From a virus (Duplodnaviria; Caudoviricetes), in IMG/VR virus record IMGVR_UViG_3300035670_000195, positions 704 to 64,703 of that record: a stretch of DNA of 64,000 bases; one strand, given 5' to 3'. Within the stretch, counting starts at the first letter, position 1. The number at the start of each line of letters is the position of its first letter. A model generated the notes under the pieces. It made no database searches. It was not told the origin of the DNA and saw nothing but the letters and a program-made list of their open reading frames with translations. Of the stretch, positions 7,392-22,159 are shown piece by piece. The position numbers and the translations under genes were made by a program.

Positions 7392-7750
7392 AGTTCATTA
7401 ACCTCTACAGTAAAGTAACCTTTGTCTGCCCATTCCTTATGAGCAGCAATCTTGACAATTTGATTATCGTCTAACCAGACGATACCGTTACATGAATCCA
7501 ACACAGCCTTGACATAGTTGTCAATATCTGGTCGTGGGTAATCCAACTTAGATGTCTTAGGTCTAGTGGGGTAGACCCCGATGGTGACATCAATAGGTCC
7601 ATCCATCGGGGTCCACTCGCCTAACACATCCACTATAATTGGTTGTACATCCTGACGAAAGGTCTTGTACGGACCTGAATAGTAGGATCCCCACTTGCTG
7701 ACTCTCGGGCGGGAAGCCGCGACAGGGCTAATGGGAAACACCCACTGCAT
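7388..7750 (-). CDS. rusA: RusA-family Holliday junction resolvase
   Basis: PVAASRPR and RPDIDNYVKAVLDSCNGIVWLDDNQI. Confidence 0.9.
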   Translation of the reverse strand: MQWVFPISPVAASRPRVSKWGSYYSGPYKTFRQDVQPIIVDVLGEWTPMDGPIDVTIGVYPTRPKTSKLDYPRPDIDNYVKAVLDSCNGIVWLDDNQIVKIAAHKEWADKGYFTVEVNEL

Positions 7751-8301
7751 CAGAATGGAACCTCGTCATCCGTAATGCCTACGGCAGGCTGAACCACAGT
7801 CGGCTCAGTCTTGCTTGGGGTAGGCGCAGCCTCACCCACAAACCCGCCGTCAACAGCATCGAACCCATTGGTGCGGGGGCTATAGTCATCGCTGTTCTTC
7901 TCAACGATCTGAACACCATTAAGGTAGAACGACATAGCCTTGCTTGGCTTGGTCACAACAACAGGAGCAAGCTTAAGACGAACAATGTCACCCTTGAACG
8001 GAACAGCCGTTGTGTACTGTGCCGATGCGTCCTGACAGGGGAATGCACCCTGCGAGACATAGGTCTTGCTCTTGAACTTGATGGTCTTAGGTGAGTCTTC
8101 ATCCTTCTGATAGATTCCATTGATCTTCTTGCATCCATTCTCCGTTGCAATACGCTTGAGTTCTGCCTCGAGTTCGGGGGTAAGTTCCACCGAAACATTG
8201 TGATTGGCAGACGCTTCACCAAACTGTGCGTCAGGCTTTGAAAGCGAAGACCAAGTCACGACAAGCTTACCAGTGATAATGTTCTTGATACGATCAGCCA
8301 T
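7750..8301 (-). CDS. single-stranded DNA-binding protein (T7 gp2.5-like)
   Basis: LNGVQIVE motif, acidic tail ending DDEVPF, position in replication block. Confidence 0.85.
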   Translation of the reverse strand: MADRIKNIITGKLVVTWSSLSKPDAQFGEASANHNVSVELTPELEAELKRIATENGCKKINGIYQKDEDSPKTIKFKSKTYVSQGAFPCQDASAQYTTAVPFKGDIVRLKLAPVVVTKPSKAMSFYLNGVQIVEKNSDDYSPRTNGFDAVDGGFVGEAAPTPSKTEPTVVQPAVGITDDEVPF

Positions 8302-8501
8302 TAGTCAGCTCCTTCCACATTTGTGGATTCGGGTTGTTCAAACTCTTGCTTCTTAGTCTGCAGTCCATGAAGAACCATCTCCATTTCCTGCGCCCACTTA
8401 GACATATAGGCGGCAACTTCATTGAACCTGTTGAGGTTCGACTCAAGATACTCCATCACCTCATCCGCCGTCACAATCAACTTCTTCTCTTCGGTTTCCA
8501 T
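8301..8501 (-). CDS. hypothetical protein
   Basis: 66 aa helical ORF, coupled. Confidence 0.6.
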   Translation of the reverse strand: METEEKKLIVTADEVMEYLESNLNRFNEVAAYMSKWAQEMEMVLHGLQTKKQEFEQPESTNVEGAD

Positions 8502-8844
8502 TTACCAGTAACTCAGACAGCTTGTTAAGTGTCTGCTCCATAGCAGTCTCCCATTGATCGGTAGGAGGCTTGATTGAAAAACCCGCTGCCGATTCCAGCG
8601 GGAACATGAAAAGGTGCATCAGTTCATGTACGATTGTTTCCTCGACATCACCATCCATGATGTCCTTCATAATCTTGATGGTGCTAGTCATGTGGTTTGG
8701 GTCGTACTCATTCAAGCCGTACACCTTACCGTCTGACTCATCCATATCCGAATAGTAGCCCCACTCAACCTTGATCTTCCAGTTGGTCAGACCAAGATCC
8801 TTCTGCCACTTACGGGTAATCTTTCTGACCTGTTGAAGATTCAT
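8461..8844 (-). CDS. zincin-like metallopeptidase-fold protein
   Basis: EETIVHELMH (HExxH). Confidence 0.7.
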   Translation of the reverse strand: MNLQQVRKITRKWQKDLGLTNWKIKVEWGYYSDMDESDGKVYGLNEYDPNHMTSTIKIMKDIMDGDVEETIVHELMHLFMFPLESAAGFSIKPPTDQWETAMEQTLNKLSELLVNGNRREEVDCDGG

Positions 8845-9500
8845 AGATCAAGCAACTCCAGATAGGGATGACCATCAATAACAACACCGCACGATAGGAT
8901 CGGCTTCTTCATGTAGGCAGATCCGTACTTCATTGCTGGATGGTCGCGGTCAACACCGCATCCAACACTCATGCCAAAGATTCGCGAGGTTGGTCCACAG
9001 ATCCAGTTGATACCAGCAACGCTGTGGAAGTGACCGACAACAACAGACTGAAGCCGCATCTTCGCTGCATTGAATGCGGGATACAAGCCACCAGAACCTA
9101 CGCCATGATAGTAGTGAACACCGTCGATGTCAATAGACGGAGTCCAATCCCAGCGCGTAGTGCCATAGACATCTTCGTATGTCCGAAGGTAGTGATCTGG
9201 AATACCAGCATCTGCAGCCAGTCTAGCAACACGCTCATCGTGATTGCCGATGGTTACAGTAGCCTCGGGAAAGTCCCTGATCCACTTCTTGAGTTCTGTC
9301 ATAGCCTGATAGTACTCATCCATAGCAGCAGGATTTTCGGGATGCTTCTTGTGAAAGGAGATGGACGCATGGTCCACGACATCACCGATGAACACCGTGC
9401 TGTCGGTCTTATACTTCTTCTGGATCTTCTTCACAAACTGCAAGTACTTAGGATGTACAGCAGGACAGTGAAGATCACCGATTACGAGAACTCTTGCCAT
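8841..9500 (-). CDS. calcineurin-like metallophosphoesterase
   Basis: GDLH, GDVVD, GNHD, HG, GHFH motifs. Confidence 0.92.
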   Translation of the reverse strand: MARVLVIGDLHCPAVHPKYLQFVKKIQKKYKTDSTVFIGDVVDHASISFHKKHPENPAAMDEYYQAMTELKKWIRDFPEATVTIGNHDERVARLAADAGIPDHYLRTYEDVYGTTRWDWTPSIDIDGVHYYHGVGSGGLYPAFNAAKMRLQSVVVGHFHSVAGINWICGPTSRIFGMSVGCGVDRDHPAMKYGSAYMKKPILSCGVVIDGHPYLELLDL

Positions 9501-9714
9501 ATCGTTTGGTCCAATCCTCTTTCCATTGATCGGCAAGAGACGGAAGAGGTTCACCGTCTGCCTGCTGTATGGGAGAGTACACATCAATCTCTCCACGCCT
9601 GTGTGCCTGTTGAATGGGAGACAGGTGAGATATATCGTCATACCTGTATACCTTGCCAGTCAGTTCAATCTTGGGTGTCTTCTTTTTCTTCGACGTAGAT
9701 GTCGACTTTGACAT
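9475..9714 (-). CDS. hypothetical basic protein
   Basis: 79 aa ORF filling the gap. Confidence 0.55.
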   Translation of the reverse strand: MSKSTSTSKKKKTPKIELTGKVYRYDDISHLSPIQQAHRRGEIDVYSPIQQADGEPLPSLADQWKEDWTKRYGKSSRNR

Positions 9715-9916
9715 GGTCTACCTTCTTTGCCTTTCGCTGCTGTAGATAATCCTTGAGATGAGAGAGGAACATGAGATTCATAAAGTTAGTTGTGCAGAAG
9801 TACACCAGATTCACTGGCGTCTTCTTCTTGTTTGACATAGCCTTATAGATCTGCTTGACTGCCTCCTCTACAGTACCTTCGTTACAGATGATAAAGATAG
9901 GGGTATCTTCTTTCAA
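9665..9916 (-). CDS. hypothetical protein
   Basis: 83 aa ORF coupled to the RNAP stop. Confidence 0.6.
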   Translation of the reverse strand: MKEDTPIFIICNEGTVEEAVKQIYKAMSNKKKTPVNLVYFCTTNFMNLMFLSHLKDYLQQRKAKKVDHVKVDIYVEEKEDTQD

Positions 9917-12345
9917 TGGAAGAAGTACTCGCTTTCCATTACCTGATTGATATCCAACTCACCAACTGGAGGAACTGGTGGAAGTTCGATGCCAAGATAT
10001 TCCTCGAGTTCTTCCTTCATTGCCTGCAACGGATTGCTTGCGTGTAAGGAAACGAACTCTCGTTTAGTTAATCGTCTCAGGTCATCCACTTCCGTAGCAT
10101 ATACTCCATAGGAATCGTGAATAAAAGAGAACGAAGACATGTTGCACTCCCGTGCGCCAGCATTGATCGTTCGATACATGTGGCTGGCATCAAGAGAGTG
10201 GATAGTATTTGGCGAGATGCCATTCATTGCCCGTAACTTATCTACTTCGTTTCGCTTGTACATGGCAAACACATACTTGCGTCTAGTAGAAGTTAGCGAA
10301 TCAATGTTTAATTCAATACGCTCGAATGGAGTGTACTCATGTGCGACAGTAAATCCACACGGGGTTGTCCACTTGAGATGCTTGTTACTTGAACAAGCAA
10401 GTTCACACACTGACTTCAGCCATTGCTTACCTTGATTTGGTATGGTAAGCAGAATGTTCATTGCCTGCTGAACATACTTGGCAAGTGCATTGGCTGCCTT
10501 TACCTTGTCTGCGGCAGGAACCCAGTCAAGATGTCCATCATCCAACAAACCGTCGATGATACCACGAAGGGTAACACCATATGGATCAGTCATGACGGCT
10601 CGCTTCACGACTGATCTACTTACCTTACCATCCCAAAAGGATAGGAAGACATCAGCCCAAGGATCGTTATAGACATTCTTCTCTAGTTCTACTGTAACCA
10701 TATTGGCTACATAGGCATAGGCATCCTGCGGTTCATCAGATGGAACAAGGTTCACAAGTTTACCAATGATAGGATCTCTAGAGATTGCAGCCCAGTGCTG
10801 AATACCGTTGCAAGATCCATCCATGTTCACTGGTAGTTGAGTCATACCATCGGTACGAAACAGCTCGAAGACAGCGGCAAGTCGTTGGAAGGATTGATTC
10901 TTCTTCTTCTTATCATCTGCCCACAGATGAAGAGTAGAGTATGGATCGTCATTGATTGAGCGAAGCATACCCATGTTATCATCTACCCACTTGACACGAT
11001 CAGAGAATGACTTCTTATCCTGATCGAACAAGTTGGCAACAGTTACCTTTAGCCAGTACAACCCACGCTCAGTCTGCTTGACTGGTTTGGCAAACAGGAT
11101 GAGACTGCGATCATGGTCGCCAGATTGTGGAGACAGTAGATCGGTTGTCGTATAGGCTCGAGATCTAAAGTCAACCGTATAGGCATGATAGAAGAAGCCA
11201 TACGATTGTAAGTCCCGTGCCAATGACAGACGCAACAGCATCCTGAATCTGTCGTTGGATCTTTTGTGCCACTCGTCCCAAAGCAATCTCTTTTCAGTTA
11301 GTGTTTCTTCAAGTACGCTTTCATCTGAAACTCTCGTTGACAGTAGATCATCCTTCTCATACGGTGGAAGGTTTGCCACCCGTGAGTTGGACTTGAAGAG
11401 TGTATCAATAACCTCAAGCACTCTACCGTTTACAGTCCACTCGGTAGACATGAGACGATTCAAACCATCGACAACTTCCTGAGATGGCTTTGAAAGTCTG
11501 AAGCGACTGGAGAACTCCTCACCTACCCAGAACATCATGTCACCAAGAACAAGAGACTTGCGAAGATATTCAGTATGCACACCACCAGTAACATCAACGG
11601 TGTGTGAGATAGGCGGAACAATCATAGGTCGATACAGAATCTTAGCCCATACTAGAAAGTCTGCGTGTGCCTTCTCTAATCCGCTAAGTACATCATCACT
11701 AAAGGTGATGTAGGTTCGTGTATCATTTCCAGCATACCTTACGGTACTGACTGTGATAAGACCCGATGCAGCAAGAATCTCTATCATATGAGCAGCAAAC
11801 TTGAGTGCATCACGCTGCTTGATCTTGCCACCCTTGTTACGATGATGCTTTATGAACTGGTCGATACGCTTCTTAGTCCAGTTATGTTTGACTGCACGGT
11901 CAGCAATAACCCAAGCACCTTTGTTATCCTTACGGATTGCTTTTAGTTCTGCGTGTTTCACCACATCAGAAGCAATCCGCCTAATGATATCTTGATACTC
12001 AACAAGACCATCAACATCGTTGAATAGGATAACTCGCACAAGACTGCCGACGATAACAACAGACAGCACATCGGGACCAAGATCATTGATGGGTTGCATC
12101 CAAGACATGGTTCTCTGTACCTTTGACAGATAGTCCATGATGGAGTCAGACAGAATGTCAGTTGTCTTGTAGATAAAGTTGGTTGCTGGAGTGTTGGCTT
12201 CTAGACACGCATCAAGTTTGTTCTCATATGAACACAGACTTCTAGTGAACATAGCCTCTTCTTCTACTGCGTTGAGCAGAAGTCGTTTAGACTTCTCATC
12301 AGAAGGTAGCGATTGCCATAGCGATCCACTACAAAGTGTTTGCAT
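9913..12345 (-). CDS. T7-like single-subunit DNA-directed RNA polymerase
   Basis: PMIVPP, DFRSRAY, motif A DGSCNGIQH, motif B RSVVKRAVMTDPYG, PNTIHSLDASH, motif C IHDS, C-terminal SEYFFH; SD GAAAGGAG. Confidence 0.97.
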   Translation of the reverse strand: MQTLCSGSLWQSLPSDEKSKRLLLNAVEEEAMFTRSLCSYENKLDACLEANTPATNFIYKTTDILSDSIMDYLSKVQRTMSWMQPINDLGPDVLSVVIVGSLVRVILFNDVDGLVEYQDIIRRIASDVVKHAELKAIRKDNKGAWVIADRAVKHNWTKKRIDQFIKHHRNKGGKIKQRDALKFAAHMIEILAASGLITVSTVRYAGNDTRTYITFSDDVLSGLEKAHADFLVWAKILYRPMIVPPISHTVDVTGGVHTEYLRKSLVLGDMMFWVGEEFSSRFRLSKPSQEVVDGLNRLMSTEWTVNGRVLEVIDTLFKSNSRVANLPPYEKDDLLSTRVSDESVLEETLTEKRLLWDEWHKRSNDRFRMLLRLSLARDLQSYGFFYHAYTVDFRSRAYTTTDLLSPQSGDHDRSLILFAKPVKQTERGLYWLKVTVANLFDQDKKSFSDRVKWVDDNMGMLRSINDDPYSTLHLWADDKKKKNQSFQRLAAVFELFRTDGMTQLPVNMDGSCNGIQHWAAISRDPIIGKLVNLVPSDEPQDAYAYVANMVTVELEKNVYNDPWADVFLSFWDGKVSRSVVKRAVMTDPYGVTLRGIIDGLLDDGHLDWVPAADKVKAANALAKYVQQAMNILLTIPNQGKQWLKSVCELACSSNKHLKWTTPCGFTVAHEYTPFERIELNIDSLTSTRRKYVFAMYKRNEVDKLRAMNGISPNTIHSLDASHMYRTINAGARECNMSSFSFIHDSYGVYATEVDDLRRLTKREFVSLHASNPLQAMKEELEEYLGIELPPVPPVGELDINQVMESEYFFH

Positions 12346-12428
12346 AATACTCCTTTCTGTTAGGGTTGTTGGGTTATTGTACCTAACAACACGAACCAAG
12401 GCAAGACACCAACGCAGTGTCTCTGTTG

Positions 12429-12449
12429 ATACGTCTCGCGTTCGTTGCT
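12429..12449 (-). promoter_or_regulatory. putative phage RNAP promoter (copy 1)
   Basis: AGCAACGAACGCGAGACGTAT, identical 21-mer at 62971-62991; 14-bp core also at 22410. Confidence 0.7.
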
Positions 12450-12469
12450 AACAAGTTATCCACAGCGCA

Positions 12470-12616
12470 TCAACGATCCTCCTCCTCATCATACCAGTCC
12501 TCATCATCGTCAGCATCATCGCCAACATACTCCCACCCATTGTTGTAGCCAGCCTCACACCGCTCCTCCCACAGAGCATCGACATCGGGGAAGTACTCGT
12601 CATCATCAATGAACAT
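12470..12616 (-). CDS. small highly acidic protein
   Basis: 48 aa with 22 D/E; SD AAGGAGG upstream. Confidence 0.6.
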   Translation of the reverse strand: MFIDDDEYFPDVDALWEERCEAGYNNGWEYVGDDADDDEDWYDEEEDR

Positions 12617-12827
12617 CGGAAACCTCCTTGTAAGTACCATTGGCATAGAGCATATAAAGTTTGTTATTGACAATGTTGGTAGCAAGGATTACATCAACAT
12701 CGAAACTGTCAATCACACCGTCATTCATTGCATCCTCAAGATACATACAAAGTTGTTCAAGATTGTTGTGGTCAATGAGTTCGACTCGAATGTTCACTAC
12801 CTTGTTTAAATCCATATCAATCGGCAT
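12606..12827 (-). CDS. early hypothetical protein
   Basis: SD AAGGAG, tiled ORF. Confidence 0.65.
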   Translation of the reverse strand: MPIDMDLNKVVNIRVELIDHNNLEQLCMYLEDAMNDGVIDSFDVDVILATNIVNNKLYMLYANGTYKEVSDVH

Positions 12828-12828
12828 A

Positions 12829-13074
12829 TCACCACTCCTTATTCATAGAGTCAACAACACGGTCAAGAAGTTCAGACTGACAGAAGTCATCAATGTCAAG
12901 ATGAACATTAGACTTTGCAGACTTGATATCCATAGCCTCGAAATCCTCCACTGACTCAGCGTCAATAAGCGGTCGACCAAGGTCTGGCATAGTATAGGTA
13001 ATCCTACCAGACACATAGTAACCCTGCTCATCCATTTCAATATAGGTGTTGGTAAAGTACTCGGTGCTTGTCAC
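12829..13074 (-). CDS. early hypothetical protein
   Basis: 81 aa acidic ORF, tiled. Confidence 0.65.
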   Translation of the reverse strand: MTSTEYFTNTYIEMDEQGYYVSGRITYTMPDLGRPLIDAESVEDFEAMDIKSAKSNVHLDIDDFCQSELLDRVVDSMNKEW

Positions 13075-13295
13075 TTATTGATATCCTTATGATAGGTGCT
13101 GGTAATCTTATACGGACCATTGAGTGAAACACCAGACCACACAACTTCAACACGACCATCAATGATAGCCTCGAGAAGTTCCATAAGATCATACAGTGCG
13201 TCCTTGATATCCTGATCCGTTTCCTTCAGGGTAACAAGAGAGACATACTCTGCCTGCTTCTCGAGCAGTGCAAGATTCACGATAGGAACACTCAC
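13071..13295 (-). CDS. early hypothetical protein
   Basis: SD AAGGAGG, tiled. Confidence 0.65.
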   Translation of the reverse strand: MSVPIVNLALLEKQAEYVSLVTLKETDQDIKDALYDLMELLEAIIDGRVEVVWSGVSLNGPYKITSTYHKDINK

Positions 13296-13627
13296 TGGAT
13301 AGCCTCCTTGATAGCGGTGATGATAGTCTTGCGGCCATCCTCGGTAGAGAAGAACTTGGTCAGTGCCCCCTCAATAATGTTGGCAGTCAGAACATCATCG
13401 ACAGCGTCGTGGATAACATCCCTATTGTCATCAATGTAATCCTTAGTTGCACGGCTGACAATCCAGTCACTGATATGCTCACTAGGATCAAAGTCATACG
13501 AGAAGTAGTTCGTTACTGCATCCGAAATCTCATCGGAAACCATACTGCGATCAATCTCAGGCTTCTCGTTGCTGATGAGATTCTTGATGTACTTCTCAAA
13601 CTCACTCACGATAGTTTCAGTATTCAT
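13292..13627 (-). CDS. early hypothetical protein
   Basis: 111 aa acidic ORF, SD AAGGAG. Confidence 0.7.
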   Translation of the reverse strand: MNTETIVSEFEKYIKNLISNEKPEIDRSMVSDEISDAVTNYFSYDFDPSEHISDWIVSRATKDYIDDNRDVIHDAVDDVLTANIIEGALTKFFSTEDGRKTIITAIKEAIQ

Positions 13628-13805
13628 TCTTCTGCATCTCCTTCCAAGTAAGATAGGTCACGAAACCAGCACCGACAGAACAGCACAACCAGAACAGAGA
13701 CTCACCTTCAAACGCATTCAGAACAGACACGGCAGTTGTCATACTCATGGCAAGAAGCATGAGCATATCGAAAGCAAACACCTTGAACTTAGCATCCATT
13801 GTCAA
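13617..13805 (-). CDS. small membrane protein
   Basis: Two hydrophobic segments. Confidence 0.6.
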   Translation of the reverse strand: MTMDAKFKVFAFDMLMLLAMSMTTAVSVLNAFEGESLFWLCCSVGAGFVTYLTWKEMQKNEY

Positions 13806-14334
13806 TACCGCCTTCCTTCAGATAGCCTGCGAACTCCATACCTGGCTCGTCAAAGAACCAAGTAATGTGGACATCGGGATACATCTCATACAACTTGTGA
13901 TAGATACCCTCGGGCGGACCCCAAGCAGTGTCGAAGGACAGTTCAACACGACCATCCTCGCCATCAATATCGACATACACATCATCAATCTTGCCGACAT
14001 CCCACTTGACACCCCAGTTATCACAGCACCAAGAGTACCAGTTGTCAGCACCATACTTATCCTTGAGATTGTCGAGATGCTTTTCCATCTCTTTAGTCAG
14101 GGCATTGTCGAGATGCCACTGAGTAGTCTCTGCATCCCACTCATACTGCTTAGAATCTGCAAGAACCTGTTCGGTAGTTCGGGGACGGGGACTGATAGTT
14201 CCAACCAGTTCCTGCGGCATAGGCATGATACTCTGAAAGAAAGGAGTATCGGTATTGATGTGGTTGTCCACGAACTTCTTGATAGTCTCGGCATCACCAC
14301 TAATCGTAACCTTATTGTAGCACCAGTTCGGCAT
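13789..14334 (-). CDS. DUF1281/YubB ferredoxin-like family protein
   Basis: MPNWCYN start, WYSWCCDNWGVKWD, FDTAWGPP, FDEPG motifs. Confidence 0.85.
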   Translation of the reverse strand: MPNWCYNKVTISGDAETIKKFVDNHINTDTPFFQSIMPMPQELVGTISPRPRTTEQVLADSKQYEWDAETTQWHLDNALTKEMEKHLDNLKDKYGADNWYSWCCDNWGVKWDVGKIDDVYVDIDGEDGRVELSFDTAWGPPEGIYHKLYEMYPDVHITWFFDEPGMEFAGYLKEGGIDNGC

Positions 14335-14336
14335 TG

Positions 14337-14534
14337 TCAAATCTCCTCTACTTCAATGACTTCGGAATCAACAGTCTCGAGTTTCTCCTCGTAGACACGC
14401 TCCCACATCATGTCATACTTGCGCCTATCGAACTCTGCAATAGCATCGTCCTCAGAGTTCACATCCTCCACAACGATTTCGTACACACGGTTCACAGTCT
14501 CAAGTTGTTCGACAGTAATCACATAGTTAGGCAT
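14337..14534 (-). CDS. small acidic early protein
   Basis: MPNYVITV...VEDVNSEDDA. Confidence 0.6.
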   Translation of the reverse strand: MPNYVITVEQLETVNRVYEIVVEDVNSEDDAIAEFDRRKYDMMWERVYEEKLETVDSEVIEVEEI

Positions 14535-14733
14535 TGCGTTCCCTCGTAGTTGTCTCATCAAACCTAAAGTCGGTAGTCTCACTGTCCCACACATAATGAT
14601 GATCGAAGTCGAAACGCCACGGATCTTTATTCCACTCCTCGATAGCCTCGTCAATAGAGTTGGCTTCGACATAGAAGCACATCGTACCCCACGAAGTTTC
14701 AGTATAGTCGCAGTAGATATCAAACTTAGGCAT
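14527..14733 (-). CDS. small acidic early protein
   Basis: MPKFDI...VEANSIDEA; SD AAAGGA. Confidence 0.65.
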   Translation of the reverse strand: MPKFDIYCDYTETSWGTMCFYVEANSIDEAIEEWNKDPWRFDFDHHYVWDSETTDFRFDETTTRERNA

Positions 14734-14872
14734 TGACAGATTCCTTTCTCATAAGATGGACAAGATACTGGCGAGCATCATCCTCGTCACGAAACCCATC
14801 GACAATCTGATTGTTGTGTACAACCAACCACCAACCACTGTCGTGATAGACACACCACATACCATTAGACAT
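14726..14872 (-). CDS. early hypothetical protein
   Basis: SD AAGGAG, MSNGMW start. Confidence 0.55.
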   Translation of the reverse strand: MSNGMWCVYHDSGWWLVVHNNQIVDGFRDEDDARQYLVHLMRKESVNA

Positions 14873-15332
14873 CAGTCTTCTCCTTGATACGATTAGCGAT
14901 ACCCTTGAAGGAACATCCACCATCATTCAGAATGGAGATGTCGATAAAGCGCATACCAATACCATCCAACTCATCGACAAACTTATCCCACTCGGCACTG
15001 GTAGTACAGAACTCATTCGGCATAAGAGTAGACGAACCATTCTCCATATCACTGAAGACAAACTCATACACCTTGTCACCAGGCTTCAGATAGATTGGCA
15101 GATCAGTATCCTCAAAGACATGGCGATACATGGGTCGACCCTCTGGATCTTCATGCTCACACATATCCTTGGTAACATGCAGTACACAGTTCATGGGAAC
15201 ATGATTGATGTAACACGCCAGACCAAGAGCGCAGAAGCACAGTTCCCCATCCACCTCGGCACACAGTCCACCACTAATCTGATTGAAACGCGGGTCATTC
15301 AGTGCATTGATATACTGGTCAATCTTAGACAT
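14865..15332 (-). CDS. early hypothetical protein
   Basis: FCALGLAC and LNDGGCSFKGIA motifs; SD GAGG. Confidence 0.7.
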   Translation of the reverse strand: MSKIDQYINALNDPRFNQISGGLCAEVDGELCFCALGLACYINHVPMNCVLHVTKDMCEHEDPEGRPMYRHVFEDTDLPIYLKPGDKVYEFVFSDMENGSSTLMPNEFCTTSAEWDKFVDELDGIGMRFIDISILNDGGCSFKGIANRIKEKTDV

Positions 15333-15666
15333 AGATAGCCTCACATTCGGTTGCGATAACGAAGATACACTTCTGCCACAGACTCTTGCGAAGTTGACTG
15401 CAGACATTCATCACGGCATCATGCTTGTCAGTCACCACCACATAGATGCGTGACTTCTCATAGACGATTCTTGGATTCGTAGAGTAACTGTAGGAACCAG
15501 CATCCTGATTCAGCCACGCACCATGAACATCGTTAAGACAGGTGAAGCACAGTCCAGCATCAATGAACGCTTCATCAACCTCTACAAAGATGGTTGGAAA
15601 GTCATGAACAGGAAACCCATTCTCGTCTGCATGATAGCACGGCACAACGATCTCATACTTCTTCAT
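15325..15666 (-). CDS. early hypothetical protein
   Basis: 113 aa, SD GGGAGG. Confidence 0.7.
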   Translation of the reverse strand: MKKYEIVVPCYHADENGFPVHDFPTIFVEVDEAFIDAGLCFTCLNDVHGAWLNQDAGSYSYSTNPRIVYEKSRIYVVVTDKHDAVMNVCSQLRKSLWQKCIFVIATECEAIYV

Positions 15667-15668
15667 GT

Positions 15669-15914
15669 TCAGCCTCCCTTCATCAGGTGGTACAGAGTCT
15701 CGGTATAGTCACGGATAACGACATTCATATTGTTGTGCAGGAAAGACTTGATGCGCTCATAGTCCTCCGCAGTAATGGCGAACTGACAACTCCGCTTCTC
15801 CTCATTACTCCACAGCCAGAGAGTATAGATAGGCTCGTCAACACCAGAGTGACAAGACACCGTGATAGCACCAAAGGTACTGTTGAAACTGTAGGACTTG
15901 TACTCACTGAGCAT
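15669..15914 (-). CDS. early hypothetical protein
   Basis: SD GGAG, tiled. Confidence 0.6.
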   Translation of the reverse strand: MLSEYKSYSFNSTFGAITVSCHSGVDEPIYTLWLWSNEEKRSCQFAITAEDYERIKSFLHNNMNVVIRDYTETLYHLMKGG

Positions 15915-16068
15915 TGTTCTCTCCATAGAGTCGGTTGCGAAGCATATCAATCTCCTCGTTCAGTTCGCGAATAGTTGCGGCAGCCTGACGCAGAATGCGA
16001 ACATTGTACTGCGTAGGATAGTCATTCTCAAGACGAAGCAACAGCAGATCAATCTCATACTCACTCAT
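15904..16068 (-). CDS. early hypothetical coiled-coil protein
   Basis: TAATG coupling; LRQAAATIRELNEEI. Confidence 0.6.
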   Translation of the reverse strand: MSEYEIDLLLLRLENDYPTQYNVRILRQAAATIRELNEEIDMLRNRLYGENNAQ

Positions 16069-16310
16069 TACGGACACCTCACAAGAAAGTTCAGATGGGT
16101 ATTCCCGATGGGCAGACCACCCATAGTAAGGGCAATAGTCCACGATCCATCACGCACATTATCCTTGGTCACGACAATCAGAAACCGCTTGGTCATTTCC
16201 TTCGCCACACACCTTGCTTCGGTCACAGCCTCAGCCTTAGTGTCGTGGCTATAGTGGTAGCCAATGCTGTCACCACCCTCAACGAAAGAGTACACGCTAT
16301 AGTTCGCCAT
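16068..16310 (-). CDS. early hypothetical protein
   Basis: Follows repeat A with SD AAGGTAGGTG. Confidence 0.65.
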   Translation of the reverse strand: MANYSVYSFVEGGDSIGYHYSHDTKAEAVTEARCVAKEMTKRFLIVVTKDNVRDGSWTIALTMGGLPIGNTHLNFLVRCP

Positions 16311-16315
16311 GTTAG

Positions 16316-16356
16316 CACCTACCTTTCATCCTCCCTCCCGTCGAGGGGGAGGGTAT
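16316..16356 (-). repeat. early intergenic repeat A copy 1 (hairpin plus SD)
   Basis: 41 bp identical to 18302-18342; partial copy at 21233-21264. Confidence 0.9.
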
Positions 16357-16381
16357 GCGGGGAATCCGATAGTTTTTTCTA

Positions 16382-16696
16382 TCAGATAGGATAGTCTCCG
16401 AACATTTCGATCACAAACTCTTCGTAAGTAGAGAGACACGCATCCTCACCACTCTCGATTTCATAGGCTACAACAATACCATCACCGAACACAGGGTATC
16501 CGACAATGCCCGTCATAGCCATGTTCATAAGTCGACCTCGATTGATTCCCTCATCATCCACCCACAGTGCGAAGATAATGTTGCCTTCACGATGAACTTC
16601 AATAGTTGTTCCATATTCCGCACCAATCAGTGCGTTGAAATCCTGCCAACCATTTGCCTCAACAAACTTCTGACGCTGAAGATCAAACACCTTCAT
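16382..16696 (-). CDS. DUF3846-like early protein
   Basis: LWVDDEG...N..MT...VFGDGIV pattern. Confidence 0.65.
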   Translation of the reverse strand: MKVFDLQRQKFVEANGWQDFNALIGAEYGTTIEVHREGNIIFALWVDDEGINRGRLMNMAMTGIVGYPVFGDGIVVAYEIESGEDACLSTYEEFVIEMFGDYPI

Positions 16697-17090
16697 AGTT
16701 CGCCTTCACTTTCTCGGCATAGCCGACAGTCGCAGACTTCTTGTAACCCTTGGGGCCACCATTGTGGATACGCGACACCGTGTCGATATTCCACATACCT
16801 CGCGGAACATAGCGGCTCAGGTACGACCGAACAATACGACGGGCATACTTCGGATTCTTACAGTCCGAATACTTGCCGCCGATACTGGGGTCATAGTCGA
16901 CCGCATCCTTCCAGTAGGCATAGTGAATCTGATAGGCTCCGATAGCCTTGCCGTTATCTCCCACGGCATTGTTGGGATCTTTACATCCTCCAGTTTCAAC
17001 GATGCGGATAGCGTCAAGCATACCATCCACATCAGTACCGACAGGAGGGGGAACACACAGCGTGAAACAAAGAAGGGCAGTACAGATCAT
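16683..17090 (-). CDS. secreted lysozyme-like (i-type/transglycosylase) protein
   Basis: Hydrophobic N-terminus, AIRIVETGG, GAYQIHYAYWKD, RIHNGGPKG. Confidence 0.85.
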   Translation of the reverse strand: MICTALLCFTLCVPPPVGTDVDGMLDAIRIVETGGCKDPNNAVGDNGKAIGAYQIHYAYWKDAVDYDPSIGGKYSDCKNPKYARRIVRSYLSRYVPRGMWNIDTVSRIHNGGPKGYKKSATVGYAEKVKANYEGV

Positions 17091-17100
17091 TTAGTTCTCC

Positions 17101-17484
17101 TTACTCATAGTGTCGAGGGCCATAGATAGCCTCGGGATACTCACGCTGAACATTCACCTTGTACTCAGACGATCCATCCACCTCGGGAAGATCCTCGCCA
17201 GACAGTCCACGCTCTTCAGCAGCGAGGATAGTCTCGAGGCAATAGTCATTGAACTCATCCTGTGCCTGCCTAGTCATCTCCTTAGCCTTGGCATACACTT
17301 GCTTTGCCATAGCATCGGCTCGAGACTTGGTGCTATACTCCGCGATAGCCACGGGCACAACATCTCGACCCCACCATCCGCCCTCTTCAGGCCCGCCATA
17401 GTATGTGCGATACTCCCACAGCACGACATACCAAGTCTCACACTTCTCGGCAGACGGACACACATTGAAGAAAGCATCGTACAT
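17101..17484 (-). CDS. early hypothetical protein
   Basis: YGGPEEGGWW motif. Confidence 0.7.
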   Translation of the reverse strand: MYDAFFNVCPSAEKCETWYVVLWEYRTYYGGPEEGGWWGRDVVPVAIAEYSTKSRADAMAKQVYAKAKEMTRQAQDEFNDYCLETILAAEERGLSGEDLPEVDGSSEYKVNVQREYPEAIYGPRHYE

Positions 17485-17488
17485 GTTG

Positions 17489-17785
17489 TCAGCCACAGTT
17501 GATATCCTCCATAGTTGGGACAATACAAGCCTCGTACACTTCAGTCCAGTCGATCTCGTCACATGAGATGAACACCCTGTCGGGAGTTCTTGCGTGGATA
17601 GTTGGGTCGACATTGAAGATGCCATGCACAATCTCGTACACAGTTTGCAAGTCACCCTCAATCAGTTCATCATAGTGCCTCCACACCTGACGACGAAGTC
17701 GCATATAGTTGTCCTCATCGTTAGACAACCACAGCACAACATTCCATGTCTCATAGTTGGCGTAGCCATTGTATCCGTCAGACAT
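17489..17785 (-). CDS. early conserved phage protein
   Basis: YNGYANYETWNVVLWLSNDE, a motif recurrent in phage early genes; SD GGAGG. Confidence 0.75.
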   Translation of the reverse strand: MSDGYNGYANYETWNVVLWLSNDEDNYMRLRRQVWRHYDELIEGDLQTVYEIVHGIFNVDPTIHARTPDRVFISCDEIDWTEVYEACIVPTMEDINCG

Positions 17786-17957
17786 TGTTCAGCACCTCCC
17801 GCAGAAAGTCAACCTCGGACTCCTCGAACCAATAGTGGTCACTACCCTCGACAACTTGCTCGGCAAAGAGCAGAAACCCTGAGGGGATTTCCTTGCCAGT
17901 CAGACACATCACAAAGATGTGCCCGATAGTGTCAGACATGTGGCACGACTCAATCAT
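17778..17957 (-). CDS. early hypothetical protein
   Basis: Tiled, SD AAGGAAGG. Confidence 0.55.
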   Translation of the reverse strand: MIESCHMSDTIGHIFVMCLTGKEIPSGFLLFAEQVVEGSDHYWFEESEVDFLREVLNNV

Positions 17958-18297
17958 TGAAGAAACCTTCCTTGTGATAGCCGTAGGTACAATCCAGCCG
18001 ACAGTCTCCGCTCGGCGTGGACACATAGTGATTCCACTTCTTGGTGAACACTCGCAGCGGGAAGTCAAGTCCCGACATCAGTGCATTCAGTCGAGACTGA
18101 GTGGTTCGACTGTGCCACCCACAGTTGTCGATATAGATCGACGGGAAAGTTCCGTCACGGTGGAGAACTTCCGCAATAAGATTGTTGTGCAGATAGATCC
18201 GCACCCAACCATCAATGCACACAACGCGGGTGTTAGACTTGCGATAGTTCGCATAGTTCTTGACAGCCTGAAGCATTTCGTGTTCGATCACTCGCAT
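17950..18297 (-). CDS. early conserved phage protein
   Basis: LHNNLIAE...GWHSRTTQSRLNAL; follows repeat A. Confidence 0.75.
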   Translation of the reverse strand: MRVIEHEMLQAVKNYANYRKSNTRVVCIDGWVRIYLHNNLIAEVLHRDGTFPSIYIDNCGWHSRTTQSRLNALMSGLDFPLRVFTKKWNHYVSTPSGDCRLDCTYGYHKEGFFND

Positions 18298-18301
18298 GAT
18301 T

Positions 18302-18342
18302 CACCTACCTTTCATCCTCCCTCCCGTCGAGGGGGAGGGTAT
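18302..18342 (-). repeat. early intergenic repeat A copy 2
   Basis: Identical to 16316-16356. Confidence 0.9.
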
Positions 18343-18365
18343 AACAGTTTGGTAGACAGTTTTTT

Positions 18366-18629
18366 TTACAGCTCAGCGACAGCCGCAAGATACTTCACGA
18401 CCTCATCGGCAGACAGATGTCCGACAACATCTCCGCTACTGTAGCCAGGGACAGTCACGGGATTACCCGTGGCATCATCCCACGCCCACACTTCGGCGGT
18501 GGTCACACCTTGGTCACAGTAGTTGAAAGTTCCGAACGCAACACTTGCTCGGACACCATTGGCGAACACCATCTGGAAACCCTGACGAACACAGTCATTG
18601 GTAGCGTGGTTGTTGTATGCGTGAAACAT
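18366..18629 (-). CDS. early hypothetical protein
   Basis: FANGVRASV, VVGHLSADEV; SD GGAGG. Confidence 0.7.
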   Translation of the reverse strand: MFHAYNNHATNDCVRQGFQMVFANGVRASVAFGTFNYCDQGVTTAEVWAWDDATGNPVTVPGYSSGDVVGHLSADEVVKYLAAVAEL

Positions 18630-18716
18630 TTCAGTCCTCCAGAAAGAGATTGACCAGACACATCACACCACACACGAGAAGACACAGTGCGCCACCCATA
18701 GCGCAGAGATAGATGG

Positions 18717-19022
18717 TCATTCCACCTCCTCCCCCCACATTTCCCGATAGTCGGGAGCGACATCGTGGGGCACAAGGTAGACATTGTCCGCACCGATAGT
18801 GTCGATGCACTTGATGTCCGCGAAAGACACCCCGAAACTGCGGGGGTCGACAGTGTGCGCCGACACTTGCTCGCCGACATCGCAGCGAACAAAGTATACC
18901 CGCTCAGTGCGTGTAACATAGTCGCCGCACGAACACACCTCACGACACACGGGCGGACACTCGTCCGACACTTCAATGACATTTCCCGTGCAAGACTTCG
19001 TGATGTAGACACACTCGAGCAT
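18717..19022 (-). CDS. early Cys-rich hypothetical protein
   Basis: SD GGAGG at the end of repeat B. Confidence 0.6.
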   Translation of the reverse strand: MLECVYITKSCTGNVIEVSDECPPVCREVCSCGDYVTRTERVYFVRCDVGEQVSAHTVDPRSFGVSFADIKCIDTIGADNVYLVPHDVAPDYREMWGEEVE

Positions 19023-19030
19023 TGCGTAGC

Positions 19031-19099
19031 CTCCGTTGGTTTGCGGACAGTCTGACACGAAAGGATTGTGTGGGATAGTTTCACCCACACACTCCGAGA
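19031..19099 (-). repeat. early intergenic repeat B copy 1
   Basis: 69 bp identical to 19716-19784; hairpin TGTGTGGG/CCCACACA. Confidence 0.92.
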
Positions 19100-19100
19100 T

Positions 19101-19415
19101 TCACCAGTCGTTGAACTCGACCACGATATCTCCCGCCCACAGTGCGGGATTGTTCCAATCCGTTTCCCAGAACTTTCGCGCCTGCTGTTCGCAGCGATAG
19201 TTCGTTCGCACAGTGTCGAGATACCGTGCGATACGCTCGACAGTATCGTGAAGGTTCTCGTCCGACACTCCGCACAACACATGCACCGACCTTTCGTTGT
19301 CGGTAATGATCCCGTCGACACACTTCAGGAAAGACACCTTCACCGACATTTCCCCGACAGCGTCGGGCAGAAGCGCGAAGATAGTGTCGACAATGTTGAG
19401 GTCGTTGTTCTTCAT
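19101..19415 (-). CDS. early hypothetical protein
   Basis: SD AAGGAG, MKNNDLN start. Confidence 0.65.
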   Translation of the reverse strand: MKNNDLNIVDTIFALLPDAVGEMSVKVSFLKCVDGIITDNERSVHVLCGVSDENLHDTVERIARYLDTVRTNYRCEQQARKFWETDWNNPALWAGDIVVEFNDW

Positions 19416-19446
19416 GGTACAGTTCTCCTTAGTTTCACCCGCACAC

Positions 19447-19707
19447 TTACAGATACATCGCGACGATGATAGTGTTATCATAGCCGCTGCCGATCTTCGT
19501 GATACGCATACCGTCGACCTCGACAGTATCGACAATCACTTCGGGATAGAAGTTCTTGAAGTGGACGGTCAACAGTTCGTTGATATTTCCGTCGATATGC
19601 CGTTCGGCAAAGGTTTCCCCACAGCCTCGGATAGCCGTCCGACAGTTTCCGACAGGCATCATCGACAGACTGCGGATAGCGGTGGCGAGAACATTCAGGG
19701 TCGACAT
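19447..19707 (-). CDS. early hypothetical protein
   Basis: SD GGAG at the end of repeat B. Confidence 0.65.
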   Translation of the reverse strand: MSTLNVLATAIRSLSMMPVGNCRTAIRGCGETFAERHIDGNINELLTVHFKNFYPEVIVDTVEVDGMRITKIGSGYDNTIIVAMYL

Positions 19708-19715
19708 AGTTCGAT

Positions 19716-19784
19716 CTCCGTTGGTTTGCGGACAGTCTGACACGAAAGGATTGTGTGGGATAGTTTCACCCACACACTCCGAGA
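19716..19784 (-). repeat. early intergenic repeat B copy 2
   Basis: Identical to 19031-19099. Confidence 0.92.
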
Positions 19785-19786
19785 GT

Positions 19787-20083
19787 TCACGGGAACATCT
19801 TCTCCAACACCTTGCGGACAGCGACCGTGTCGATACTGCGGAACACTTCCACACACTTCGCCTTCTTGCATGACAGATAGCCTACGCCATCACATCCCCA
19901 CCGATACCCTCGTCCTGGAAAGAACGCGACAGTGTTTCGGACAGTTGGCGCGACATTGTCGAACTCTTCATCCGTCTTAGTGTGGCGAGCCACAATGAGA
20001 GTTCCGTCGAGATAGTCCACCCAACAACCCATCTCGCGAAGATTGTCGATAGCCGCACGGACACTTTGTTCAGTCTTCGTCAT
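19787..20083 (-). CDS. early hypothetical protein
   Basis: 98 aa, SD-like GAAAGG. Confidence 0.65.
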   Translation of the reverse strand: MTKTEQSVRAAIDNLREMGCWVDYLDGTLIVARHTKTDEEFDNVAPTVRNTVAFFPGRGYRWGCDGVGYLSCKKAKCVEVFRSIDTVAVRKVLEKMFP

Positions 20084-20095
20084 ACTTGCCGCCTT

Positions 20096-20281
20096 TCAGT
20101 TAGAGAAAGTCTTCGCAAACTTCACACGGGCACAAAGGAACGCGACAGCCGCCTTCCGAGTGTATCCACACTTTCGGATAGCCTCGACAGCGGCATCATA
20201 GTTAGCCTTCACAGCGCATCCCGCAAAGTTAGCGATAGCACGGTTCGCACACTCAATCTGGAAAGCCGTAGGCTTTGGCAT
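20096..20281 (-). CDS. early small basic protein
   Basis: SD GGAG, MPKPTAFQ start. Confidence 0.6.
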   Translation of the reverse strand: MPKPTAFQIECANRAIANFAGCAVKANYDAAVEAIRKCGYTRKAAVAFLCARVKFAKTFSN

Positions 20282-20387
20282 GGATTGTCTCCGATAGACG
20301 ACGGATACCCTAGGCAACATACCTTTGGGCGAAAGGGGAGAATACCCGTTAGGGTATCCTCCCCGAGAGTTGGGGGGGGCGGACAGT

Positions 20388-20843
20388 TCAGGCGACAGTC
20401 GCGGGAACCTTGAACATATCGTCCATCGACAGATTGACAGACAGACGCTTTCCAGCCTTCGACTTCGACTGCGGGACAGTGCGAGCGGGGACAAGGTACG
20501 CGTAACCGTTCGCGTTCCACCAGTCGGTGACATGCGACGCGACAGTCTTCGCGTGACCACCACCCTTGCCTGCGAGTCCGATACCGTCGTTCTCGATAGC
20601 GGCGTAGATATCGAGGAGCGAGAACGCGGAACGACAGTGCGGATTGAACGGATCGGAGACGAGTCCGTTGACGGTCGACATAGACTTGAAAGTCGACGGA
20701 CGACCCGCAGAGTCGCGATTACGCTTCGAGAGATCGGCGGCATAGCCGTCCGAGAAAGTGCGCATGACCTTGCCGCCGATATCCGAGTCAAGGAAGTCAG
20801 CGAAAGTGGCGAACTGCGACGCGATCATAGCGAGAGTAGACAT
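20388..20843 (-). CDS. first early gene, hypothetical
   Basis: SD AAGGAG before MSTLAMI; first ORF after the non-coding end region. Confidence 0.7.
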   Translation of the reverse strand: MSTLAMIASQFATFADFLDSDIGGKVMRTFSDGYAADLSKRNRDSAGRPSTFKSMSTVNGLVSDPFNPHCRSAFSLLDIYAAIENDGIGLAGKGGGHAKTVASHVTDWWNANGYAYLVPARTVPQSKSKAGKRLSVNLSMDDMFKVPATVA

Positions 20844-21202
20844 AGTGCGAAACTCCTTGAAAGTGGCGAAACGAGGGAGGCTACAGTAGCCGCCCCACAA
20901 TGGAAACCGCAGGATAACCGTTAGGATACCCTGCGGGTTAGGGTTTATTTAGTGCGCCGCTCGCGTTCCCGTTATACCGTATGTCGGCAGTGCAGGTTCC
21001 TACCCCATCCGTTGGCACGGGAAACTTAGGCTCACCACCTAAGTTTGCAGGGTAGACTACGCGTCTAAGTGTTCCAGACCTCCGTTACTAGCGCCCAGGG
21101 TAGCCCCATCGTCCATCCGATGGTATTTCCCGACGACTTTCGACCCGTTAGGGTCTATCCTAATCCGCGAATCTTCGCGGAGGACAAGAGGAACACAGTT
21201 TA

Positions 21203-21226
21203 AGTTGTCAAAGAACCGCCGAAGCG
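21203..21226 (-). promoter_or_regulatory. boxB-like UUCG hairpin plus boxA-like antiterminator
   Basis: CGC-TTCG-GCG directly followed by GTTCTTTGACAACT. Confidence 0.55.
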
Positions 21227-21321
21227 ATACCTTCCTCCCTACGGCGGGGAGGGTATGCGGGGAAGTGGGGCAAGATTCCGCAAGATTCTTTGCGGCATAG
21301 TTTGCAAGGTTTCTTCGCGTT

Positions 21322-21367
21322 GGGGCGGGGGGGATCACAGGGGGGGATAGGGGGGGTTGATGGGGGG
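21322..21367 (+). repeat. five G-tracts (G-quadruplex-capable)
   Basis: G4-C-G7-ATCACA-G7-ATA-G7-TTGAT-G6. Confidence 0.75.
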
Positions 21368-21514
21368 CCGCTGCTTGGTAAGCCCCTCTTTACAAATTTC
21401 TGACACCTAAACGTTTTTAGAAACCCCAGCGATACCCTTTCGGGTACCGTGGGATAGATAGTAACCACTCCCTGCTGGACGGGGGTCAGCTGTTATGGGG
21501 TGGTGCGGTGACGA

Positions 21515-22159
21515 TTATCGTCTGCGTCTGCTGACTAGGCCAGCTAGACCAAGGAGTGCAACGACTCCAGGAGTTGGGGCAGAAAGTACAAATGAACCTC
21601 CTGCCGTGTTTCCGATGTTGTTTGGTAGTGGGGACCATACACCCCAGTTCTGACTTGTTTGCCAGAAGTTGTCTGCATCTACACCTTCAGCCCAAACAAA
21701 CTGATCTCCAGCGCTATCGTCTAGGATAGCTCCGATATTCATGGCAAAGGTTCCAGAGTCAAGCTGCAAGTCCGATAGTGGAATTGCAAACTCGTATACT
21801 GCTTCACCGTAAAGATTGTATGTATCGGTGTTTGCGATTTGAAGTTGATTGATTGAGAACTTATTATTGTAAAGTTGCTTGGTGAATGTTGCGTCCCATA
21901 CAATGATCTGAAAGGATGTAACGTTATCAAGACCCTGACCGTTAAACCCATTCATGGATCCCCACCATCTTAGCGAGCTAAAGTCATAGCTATCTTCCAA
22001 GCTAAACATCTGTGCCCCGCTAGAGGCATAGGTGTATTCTCCATTTGATACAAAAGCATCTGAATAGAATCCTACGCTGTCTGCTACTGGGTTGTTAACA
22101 ACGATAAAGTCTGCATGTGCTACGCCGCTTACCAAACAAATTACTAGTGCCGTCTTCAT
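21515..22159 (-). CDS. secreted protein with PEP-CTERM-like (PxPG-TM-RRRR) sorting signal
   Basis: Signal peptide MKTALVICLVSGVAHA; C-terminus APTPGVVALLGLAGLVSRRRR. Confidence 0.88.
   Translation of the reverse strand: MKTALVICLVSGVAHADFIVVNNPVADSVGFYSDAFVSNGEYTYASSGAQMFSLEDSYDFSSLRWWGSMNGFNGQGLDNVTSFQIIVWDATFTKQLYNNKFSINQLQIANTDTYNLYGEAVYEFAIPLSDLQLDSGTFAMNIGAILDDSAGDQFVWAEGVDADNFWQTSQNWGVWSPLPNNIGNTAGGSFVLSAPTPGVVALLGLAGLVSRRRR

Follow-up and report, generated by a model that had tools for sequence, protein, structure and literature searches.

The window analysed in this study, 64,000 nucleotides comprising positions 704 to 64,703 of the metagenomic virus record IMGVR_UViG_3300035670_000195, represents a T7-like phage of 64.7 kb in which all genes are co-oriented. 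The late genes end with a gene at 21515-22159 (minus strand) that encodes a secreted protein with a PEP-CTERM-like tail. A non-coding junction (leader) follows at 20844-21514, containing G-runs and GGGTAT-type repeats, and the genome ends are presumed to lie here. The first eight early genes occupy 18366-20843 on the minus strand (20843-20388, 20281-20096, 20083-19787, 19707-19447, 19415-19101, 19022-18717, 18720-18631 and 18629-18366); seven of them have no match in any family library searched and one (18629-18366) matches a PHROG of unknown function. The remaining 21 early genes lie at 12470-18365 (minus strand), and the middle genes, among them RNA polymerase (9913-12399), primase-helicase and DNA polymerase, at 907-12399 (minus strand). 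An exact 69-bp intergenic repeat is found at 19031-19099 and again at 19716-19784; the first copy holds a 7-bp-stem hairpin. Scans for promoters and terminators gave nothing usable for an unknown host.

Written over the early genes, between the junction and the RNA polymerase gene, is a dense array of the word GAYAG, always pointing the same way. Between 18700 and 20640 there are 41 sites on the plus strand and none inverted, compared to 3.8 predicted from uniform composition, exactly confirming the count in a sequence-only reading of this DNA. Because the genes lie on the minus strand, the mRNA-sense word is CTRTC. No minus-strand site exists between 17577 and 21155, and the core of the array at 17597-20637 is thus a run of 52 consecutive co-oriented sites, in a stretch of 3.6 kb. 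Per-kb counts are 21 (19-20 kb), 11 (18-19 kb), 10 and 7, with a peak of 27 per kb at 19515-20514. A dinucleotide Markov model for the first 2.6 kb of early DNA expects 8.8 sense-strand sites against 45 observed. The earlier claim that most sites read SGAYAG also holds, in that 35 of 44 sites in 18366-20900 have S in this position; outside frame 1, however, the consensus beyond 5 nt extends only to 'not C' before CTRTC and to S after it in the GC-rich part. No period from 3 to 47 stands out and the spacings are spread evenly modulo 3, giving no indication of helical or codon phasing. Repeats are not the cause, for the 69-bp element, with two sites in each copy, is the only true duplication and adds only 2 non-independent sites; the other apparent repeat families are short motif-driven matches.

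Codon-preserving controls show that the excess reflects selection at the nucleotide level. The first eight genes carry 38 sense-strand sites, compared to 17.4±2.7 in synonymous shuffles and 7.7±2.7 in codon-order shuffles, and none of 500 shuffles of either kind reached 38. The remaining 21 early genes hold 45 against 22.4 expected from synonymous shuffles, and the 29 early genes together hold 83 against 39.5±4.4. All three frames are enriched (7 against 2.9, 52 against 23.4 and 24 against 13.4), and seven more sites lie in 374 nt of intergenic DNA, those of the 69-bp repeat included. Codon choice is altered: in the first eight genes, Ala before ATC/GTC is encoded by GCT in 11 of 11 cases, but in 12 of 58 before other residues. 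The late genes under-use the same codon pair (4 of 25), which excludes a general codon-pair preference of the genome. Amino-acid order is altered as well, with 29 [AT][IV] dipeptides against 17.3±3.5 and no excess of the reversed dipeptide. One correction to the sequence-only reading is required, however, in that the lack of inverted sites is not an independent signal. The same shuffles expect only 0.4-1.0 inverted sites in the first eight genes, and across all 29 early genes 6 are seen against 6.2 expected, although a dinucleotide model for the early region gives 7 against 17.7.

The possibility that no reader exists, and that the excess is a side effect of many simultaneous sequence constraints or of a context-dependent mutation bias in a heavily sculpted, relatively GC-rich early module, appears unlikely. 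The early DNA is indeed under strong multi-word constraints. It is purged of 4-bp palindromes (AATT 0 against about 35 expected, ACGT 1 against 32, AGCT 1 against 32), and one enriched word there (GAACT, 21 against 6.1) is simply the mirror of GAGCT avoidance. Top 5-mers in the early genes of relatives commonly reach z 4-6.5. Yet shuffles that keep the palindrome purge give only 18.9±3.0 sites, with a maximum of 25 in 60 replicates, against the 38 observed. The combined z of about 10 for all 29 genes is well above the survey range, and the presence of the excess in three frames, in spacers and in amino-acid order, together with the opposite codon pairing in late genes, likewise speaks against a mere side effect.

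Relatives were sought to examine how widely the array is shared. The RNA polymerase as a single query found nothing in viral or metagenome contigs, whereas an alignment-based search returned 80 loci from each. From the first set we analysed 51 of 80 loci, chosen for a near-full polymerase match with upstream DNA, and dropped the other 29 as truncated; from the second, only one locus (L082) was analysed for the upstream motif count and the DNA alignment. Searches with the first early protein and with a 28-nt leader word found nothing. The nearest relative (89.7% identical DNA) shares the bias, with 22 sense sites against 5 inverted in 3.9 kb, although contigs of the nearest relatives end at the equivalent of position 16474 in the window, so that the densest 4 kb has no comparison. 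Density is kept in this relative but individual sites are not: 19 of 30 window sites are retained, compared to 67.6% of all 5-nt windows, and motif positions are not better conserved than their surroundings (12.0% against 9.7% mismatches), an observation that could also fit the absence of a reader. More distant relatives mostly lack the bias. Of the 51 RNA-polymerase-anchored loci examined none exceeds 9 per kb, and none of the 8 loci anchored on the PEP-CTERM-like gene shows the array. Still, one distant relative (L002) has a weaker excess of the same word, CTGTC occurring 22 times against 11.3 (z 4.4) with 4 inverted, which fits a reader shared by related hosts or by the phages themselves. 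Another phage of the group (L162) has a different polar word, CCGAG, present 40 times against a synonymous expectation of 17.9 (z 7.2) with 0 inverted. TGATG-type arrays in relatives, used as a control for any dense polar 5-mer, are mostly explained by amino acids and codons (z from -0.1 to 3.8 in 11 loci). The outcome that the sequence-only reading had named as refuting, namely enrichment reproduced by codon-pair shuffles and absent in relatives, was therefore not obtained.

Position in the genome provides a further constraint. Mean density falls from early to middle to late genes (10.3, 3.7 and 1.9 per kb), with the peak located 1-2 kb from the presumed end. The middle genes show weaker enrichment (43 sense sites against 22.8±3.9, and 15 inverted against 14.1), and the late genes almost none (z 2.2), with 76 sites in one orientation against 77 in the other. 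Counts of 6, 27, 11, 11, 9, 8, 5, 8 and 8, however, yield a Spearman coefficient of -0.40 (p 0.29), and an exponential fit beats a three-class step model only moderately (SSE 373 against 454). The array lies next to the non-coding junction, where the ends of a T7-like genome are expected. That this DNA enters the cell first is inferred from T7-like gene order, the contig being a circular assembly with a 127-bp overlap in which the physical ends are not mapped.

Density that follows the expression classes could alternatively suggest that the word read is CURUC on the early and middle transcripts, used by a host or phage RNA-binding protein or endoribonuclease, or by the transcribing polymerase through the non-template strand, to control the stability, translation or elongation of early messages. 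The array starts about 210 nt inside the first gene, it is dense in spacers between co-transcribed genes but sparse in the leader (3 sites in 671 nt, and 1 inverted), and the word is always in the sense strand. This explanation is considered doubtful. A search of Rfam gave only one sub-threshold miRNA-like chance match, the enrichment continues into genes that a T7-like phage transcribes with its own polymerase, and a 5-mer every 50 nt would be an unusually dense RNA signal.

The purge of palindromes shows clearly that restriction shapes this DNA, and GAYAG might accordingly be the site of a host defence that cuts only between inverted pairs of an asymmetric site (Type III, Type ISP or MANTIS-like). 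The first-entering DNA would escape cleavage by keeping the site in a single orientation, and the many harmless copies may also tie up the enzyme before the late DNA arrives, where both orientations occur. An asymmetric 5-mer with one degenerate position, in a long co-oriented run, would be consistent with this idea, as would the different polar word in L162. Strand-specific depletion is reported in about 40% of virulent phages, together with 'single enrichment' of asymmetric sites (preprint 10.64898/2026.09.23.753747), and an intact site can sequester EcoP15 (PMC3874151). The idea remains rather weakly supported, however. Avoidance explains depletion, not a 2- to 5-fold excess that reshapes proteins, and the absence of inverted sites is already expected from codon usage. 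The early region as a whole is not orientation-pure, since six inverted sites lie in the early genes at 12.4-17.8 kb. Restriction specificities vary between strains, yet the distant relative L002 shows the same word enriched. A precedent for the enzyme-sink role was not found, nor did literature searches on restriction avoidance in first-entering DNA and on strand-biased primase sites return anything relevant.

On the collective evidence, the array is understood as a DNA-level, one-directional signal under selection for density, strongest in the DNA nearest the genome end that is inferred to enter first. We tentatively suggest (probability roughly 0.3) that its reader is a host helicase-nuclease loading on DNA ends, of the AddAB or RecBCD type. 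GAYAG, read on the strand that ends 3' at the nearby terminus, would act as a weak Chi-like word, each copy having a small chance of switching the enzyme from degradation to recombination or repair mode, so that many copies are needed. Of the four functions offered by the sequence-only reading without a choice among them, none could be shown, but the Chi-like one has the best precedent. Orientation itself is not a test of the proposal, since it is not known which of the two complementary words is read and any one-way array would 'fit' one end. The only lead to the host is the PEP-CTERM-like protein, for which NCBIfam found nothing, a protein atlas gave Planctomycetota and Acidobacteriota look-alikes, and 117 sequence homologues carry no organism names. 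A first scan of genome contigs was empty and a second gave a 44%-identical homologue in one Planctomycetota MAG; a Phycisphaerales host is not shown. This MAG has no RecC match but contains two adjacent ORFs of 1160 and 1430 aa, each with a PDDEXK_1 nuclease domain, which looks like AddAB, and known AddAB enzymes probably read short Chi words. In 400 kb of the same MAG, a host candidate at phylum level only, GAYAG is not over-represented (ratios of 0.93 and 1.16 to a third-order Markov model) and is barely polar (contig skews from -0.18 to +0.08, ranks 52 and 127 of 430 words). A point against the proposal is that the outermost roughly 0.9 kb, the leader plus the first 200 nt of gene 1, has only 3 sites, for DNA outside the first recognised site, including any early promoter, would be lost to a nuclease entering at the end.

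Few sequence signals are known that a phage adds to its DNA, rather than removes, in order to survive entry, and Chi is the only established case. Here, selection for a five-letter word is strong enough to change codon choice and amino-acid order in at least eight genes. Should the reader be a host nuclease, the array would reveal the Chi word of an uncultivated lineage, possibly planctomycete, and would show that T7-like phages use Chi arrays; should it be something else, the array points to an unknown step of genome entry or of early defence evasion. More speculatively, and with somewhat less support than the Chi-like reading, the array could belong to an undescribed class of polar 'entry-end' signals in virulent phages, short lineage-specific words written densely in one direction into the first-entering DNA. 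These would be read not by RecBCD but by another one-directional machine, such as an orientation-dependent defence that the array jams or soaks up, or a motor (ejected protein or polymerase) that pulls the genome in. The polar word of L162 would then be a member of the same class.

Among known systems, the pentamers recognised by the T7 gp4 primase provide one comparison, as CTRTC could be the site of the phage's own primase-helicase, which is of the same family (phrog_239, E 3e-163). The word has the length and the 3' (G/A)TC form that T7 sites appear to have and, if the T7 rule of a cryptic 3' C applies, the primer would start pppA-Y-A-G; the site would be enriched on the lagging-strand template for forks moving away from the left end. 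TGTC is the strongest 4-mer outlier (50 against 25.6, z 7.6), and some relatives with the same primase family show weak excess of CTGTC or CTATC. Nonetheless, this origin is improbable. The presumed primase sites of T7 are neither polar nor concentrated in its early DNA (161 on the top strand and 159 on the bottom, at about 4 per kb per strand throughout), Okazaki priming does not need a site every 50 nt, and the late genes, replicated in the same direction, show almost no excess. A second comparison is with one-orientation asymmetric restriction sites in virulent phages. T7 carries all 36 EcoP15 sites in one orientation and is resistant (PMC3874151), and our own count gives 36 against 0; as in the present array, a short asymmetric word occurs many times in one orientation and the retained orientation is above expectation. 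In T7 and in L162, however, the polarity is genome-wide and even, whereas here it is concentrated near one end and late DNA has both orientations equally; moreover, the known phenomenon is depletion of one strand, whereas the significant signal here is enrichment. The closest analogy exists with the terminally clustered, co-oriented Chi arrays of phages LLS (E. coli) and MD8 (P. aeruginosa) and with Chi-rich P1 (PMC12315714); Chi over-representation is also reported in some virulent phages (PMC3784561). LLS has 23 Chi sites, 20 in the active orientation and half in the end-proximal 22% of the genome, and MD8 has 32 sites against 0 inverted, concentrated at the same end; codon usage does not explain the accumulation, and the sites are said to 'come and go'. 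Those words are the known 8-mers of the hosts at about one per 1.9 kb in lambdoid or P1-type phages, and Chi-rich lambdoid phages mostly lack a Rec module, while the word here is a degenerate 5-mer of 9 bits, at up to 27 per kb, in a T7-like phage with its own gp2.5-like annealing protein (weak match, E 1.5e-5) and T7 gp6-like exonuclease (phrog_107).

The single-contig virus record, of whose 64,703 bases the window covers 64,000, has two ends that overlap by an exact 127 bp and is thus a circular assembly with unknown physical ends. All long ORFs lie on the minus strand, and PHROG matches reveal a T7-like layout that comprises a single-subunit RNA polymerase (9913-12399, phrog_414, E 2e-158), T7-type primase-helicase, DNA polymerase, ribonucleotide reductase, major head protein, tail proteins and large terminase, together with a gp2.5-like annealing protein, exonuclease, thymidylate synthase, dUTPase and head-tail adaptor. 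Read on the minus strand, the gene order begins with a 671-bp non-coding junction (20844-21514), followed by 29 small genes, most of them without a family match (20843-12470), and then by the polymerase, the DNA-metabolism genes and the structural genes. The last genes are a 3665-aa ORF and a small secreted protein with a PEP-CTERM-like tail. By analogy with T7, the ends would lie in the junction and the small-gene block would enter first. The junction holds four G-runs of 6-8 separated by short words, as well as several copies of a CCGTTAGGGT-like element, partly in inverted pairs (21320-21370 and 20300-20370, 20905-20945, 21140-21165). The left-most early genes appear to differ between strains: in a sequencing run from a second study, a 93-97% similar variant shows a joint going back from 19785 to 19447, at an exact 69-bp intergenic repeat, and a contig matching from 21223 rightwards continues leftwards into at least 255 letters unlike the window.

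The count given by the sequence-only reading, 41 GAYAG on the + strand in 18700-20640 and none in the opposite orientation (CTRTC), is reproduced exactly, and 52 co-oriented sites are found between the minus-strand sites at 17577 and 21155. Uniform composition predicts 3.8 sites, while a dinucleotide model predicts 8.8 for the first 2.6 kb of early DNA, against 45 seen. Because the genes are on the minus strand, the word in the mRNA sense is CTRTC. The asymmetry is already visible in the tetramer, with AYAG occurring 52 times against 1 for CTRT. Only one true duplication contributes, namely the 69-bp intergenic repeat, and it adds two sites.

The excess is not accounted for by codon usage. In the first eight genes we find 38 sense sites, compared to 17.4±2.7 in synonymous-codon shuffles within each gene and 7.7±2.7 in codon-order shuffles, and none of 500 shuffles of either kind reaches 38. 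For all 29 early genes, the corresponding figures are 83 against 39.5±4.4 and 22.8±4.5. The excess is present in each reading frame (7 against 2.9, 52 against 23.4 and 24 against 13.4), with 6, 0 and 0 of 500 shuffles reaching the observed values, and the spacers hold 7 sites in 374 nt. Codon choice depends on context: in the first eight genes, Ala before ATC/GTC is encoded by GCT in 11 of 11 cases but in 12 of 58 before other residues, and Val after NCT is encoded by GTC in 16 of 18 cases against 24 of 60. Late genes do the opposite (GCT in 4 of 25 and ACT in 4 of 37), and the pairing is therefore not a translational habit of the genome. Protein sequence is affected as well, in that [AT][IV] dipeptides number 29 against 17.3±3.5 in residue shuffles, while [IV][AT] is at expectation. 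An unbiased scan of all 4-6-mers in the first eight genes places TGTC (z 7.6), TGTCG (6.6) and CTGTC (5.9) on top. The absence of inverted sites, by contrast, is what codon usage predicts, with 0.4-1.0 expected.

Dense polar 5-mers are common in coding DNA. TGATG reaches 24 against 2 per 2 kb in relatives, yet there the synonymous expectation nearly matches, with z from -0.1 to 3.8 in 11 loci. The top word in those 11 early regions reaches z 3.7-6.5, compared to a combined z for the present array of about 7.6 for eight genes and about 10 for all 29. The early DNA is also purged of 4-bp palindromes: over 12400-20900, AATT is 0 against about 35 expected, ACGT 1 against 32, AGCT 1 against 32 and TTAA 2 against 35, while CTAG is 3 and GGCC 4, each against roughly 32-35 expected. 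Late DNA has these palindromes in plenty, whereas CCGG is absent from the whole 64 kb. TCGA is in excess (74 against 32), and GTCGAC occurs 7 times in 18366-20900. Such purges do create mirror enrichments, as seen from GAACT at 21 against 6.1, which is the mirror of GAGCT at 0 against 6.2. We therefore repeated the shuffles while forbidding any new purged word, and the expectation stays at 18.9±3.0, with a maximum of 25 in 60 replicates. No helical or other periodic spacing is found, and there is no consensus beyond the five letters. As a side effect of the skewed word usage, stop codons are so scarce in 18366-20900 that ORFs of 130-270 aa are open in several frames on both strands, which presents a trap for gene callers.

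Counted from the presumed end, sense sites per kb run 6, 27, 11, 11, 9, 8, 5, 8, 8, 5, 7, 4, 6, 3, 2, 2, and then about 2, giving class means of 10.3 (early), 3.7 (middle) and 1.9 (late). Middle genes still exceed their shuffles (43 against 22.8±3.9), while late genes barely do (76 against 61.9±6.5). An exponential with a length constant of 7.7±1.6 kb fits somewhat better than a three-class step model (SSE 373 against 454). The leader itself is poor in sites, with 3 in 671 nt. A possible reading of the word at the level of RNA fits both the sparse leader and the start of the array inside the first gene, but it has no candidate reader. Recognition by the phage primase appears unlikely: although this reading fits the form of the word, it fails the control provided by T7, where the presumed primase sites number 161 against 159 and show no concentration in the early DNA.

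The polymerase family is large in metagenomes, with many contigs of 60-70 kb. The nearest relatives (77% polymerase identity) share early DNA that is 90% identical to window 12828-16474, where their contigs end, and in that stretch they show the same bias, 22 against 5 and 17 against 3. In the relative's locus L082, the early DNA (L082:3-3656 against window 12828-16474) is 90% identical, while the adjacent RNA polymerase gene (L082:3660-6347 against window 9913-12616) is only 75% identical at the DNA level, suggesting a recent exchange of the early module. Individual sites are no better conserved than the background, since 19 of 30 are kept, against 67.6% of all 5-nt windows; the window has 11 private sites and the relative has 3. 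Of the 51 polymerase-anchored loci examined (of 80), none exceeds 9 per kb, and eight of eight loci anchored on the PEP-CTERM-like gene show no array. Weak excess of the same word does appear in L002, a distant relative (CTGTC 22 against 11.3, z 4.4, inverted 4), and in the locus L003 (CTATC z 3.0). Another phage of the group, L162, carries a different polar word: over L162:1-13873, CCGAG occurs 46 times and its complement never, with 40 occurrences within ORFs against a synonymous expectation of 17.9 (z 7.2), spread evenly in 13.9 kb. The locus also lacks CGCG, CCGG, ACGT, AGCT and CASTG entirely.

Based on the collective evidence, the feature is a selected, one-directional pentamer array overlaid on genes, and this conclusion is robust, whereas its function is unresolved. 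Two known kinds of oriented word array offer themselves for comparison. The one involves asymmetric restriction sites kept in one orientation, for which the 36 EcoP15 sites of T7 are the classic case (PMC3874151), confirmed by our own count of 36 against 0, and for which MANTIS and Type III sites provide the other (10.64898/2026.09.23.753747); the latter study also notes unexplained 'single enrichment'. A restriction reading explains the polarity and the parallels with L162 and T7, but it does not explain the excess or the concentration near the end, and it is regarded here as doubtful. The other kind involves end-clustered, co-oriented Chi arrays, and a Chi-like function of GAYAG is the reading that we rank first, if only tentatively. 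Its weaknesses are real. Orientation cannot be used as a test, since either complementary word could be the one that is read; the leader is nearly empty of sites; and the phage has its own recombination genes. The secreted protein encoded at 21515-22159, which ends in a PTPG motif, a hydrophobic helix and RRRR, has 117 homologues, mostly on phage-sized contigs, and one homologue at 44% identity lies on a genuinely bacterial contig of a Planctomycetota MAG. In 400 kb of this MAG, the only candidate-phylum genome analyzed, GAYAG is neither in excess nor clearly polar. The MAG (G001) does harbor two adjacent ORFs of 1430 and 1160 aa (G001:C8:52559-57315), each with a PDDEXK_1 domain, which look like AddAB, and no RecC match was found in this incomplete genome. 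Among phages with Chi arrays, LLS has 23 sites, 20 in the active orientation and half in the end-proximal 22% of the genome, MD8 has 32 sites against 0 inverted, and P1 has 50 sites; positive selection beyond codon usage has been argued for these arrays, whose sites are said to come and go (PMC12315714). Chi excess is also reported in some virulent phages (PMC3784561), and T7 itself (L161) has 7 copies of the E. coli Chi octamer, all on the top (coding) strand and none on the other. Chi represents the only established case in which adding an oriented word protects or helps incoming DNA, and its architecture matches that of the array described here.
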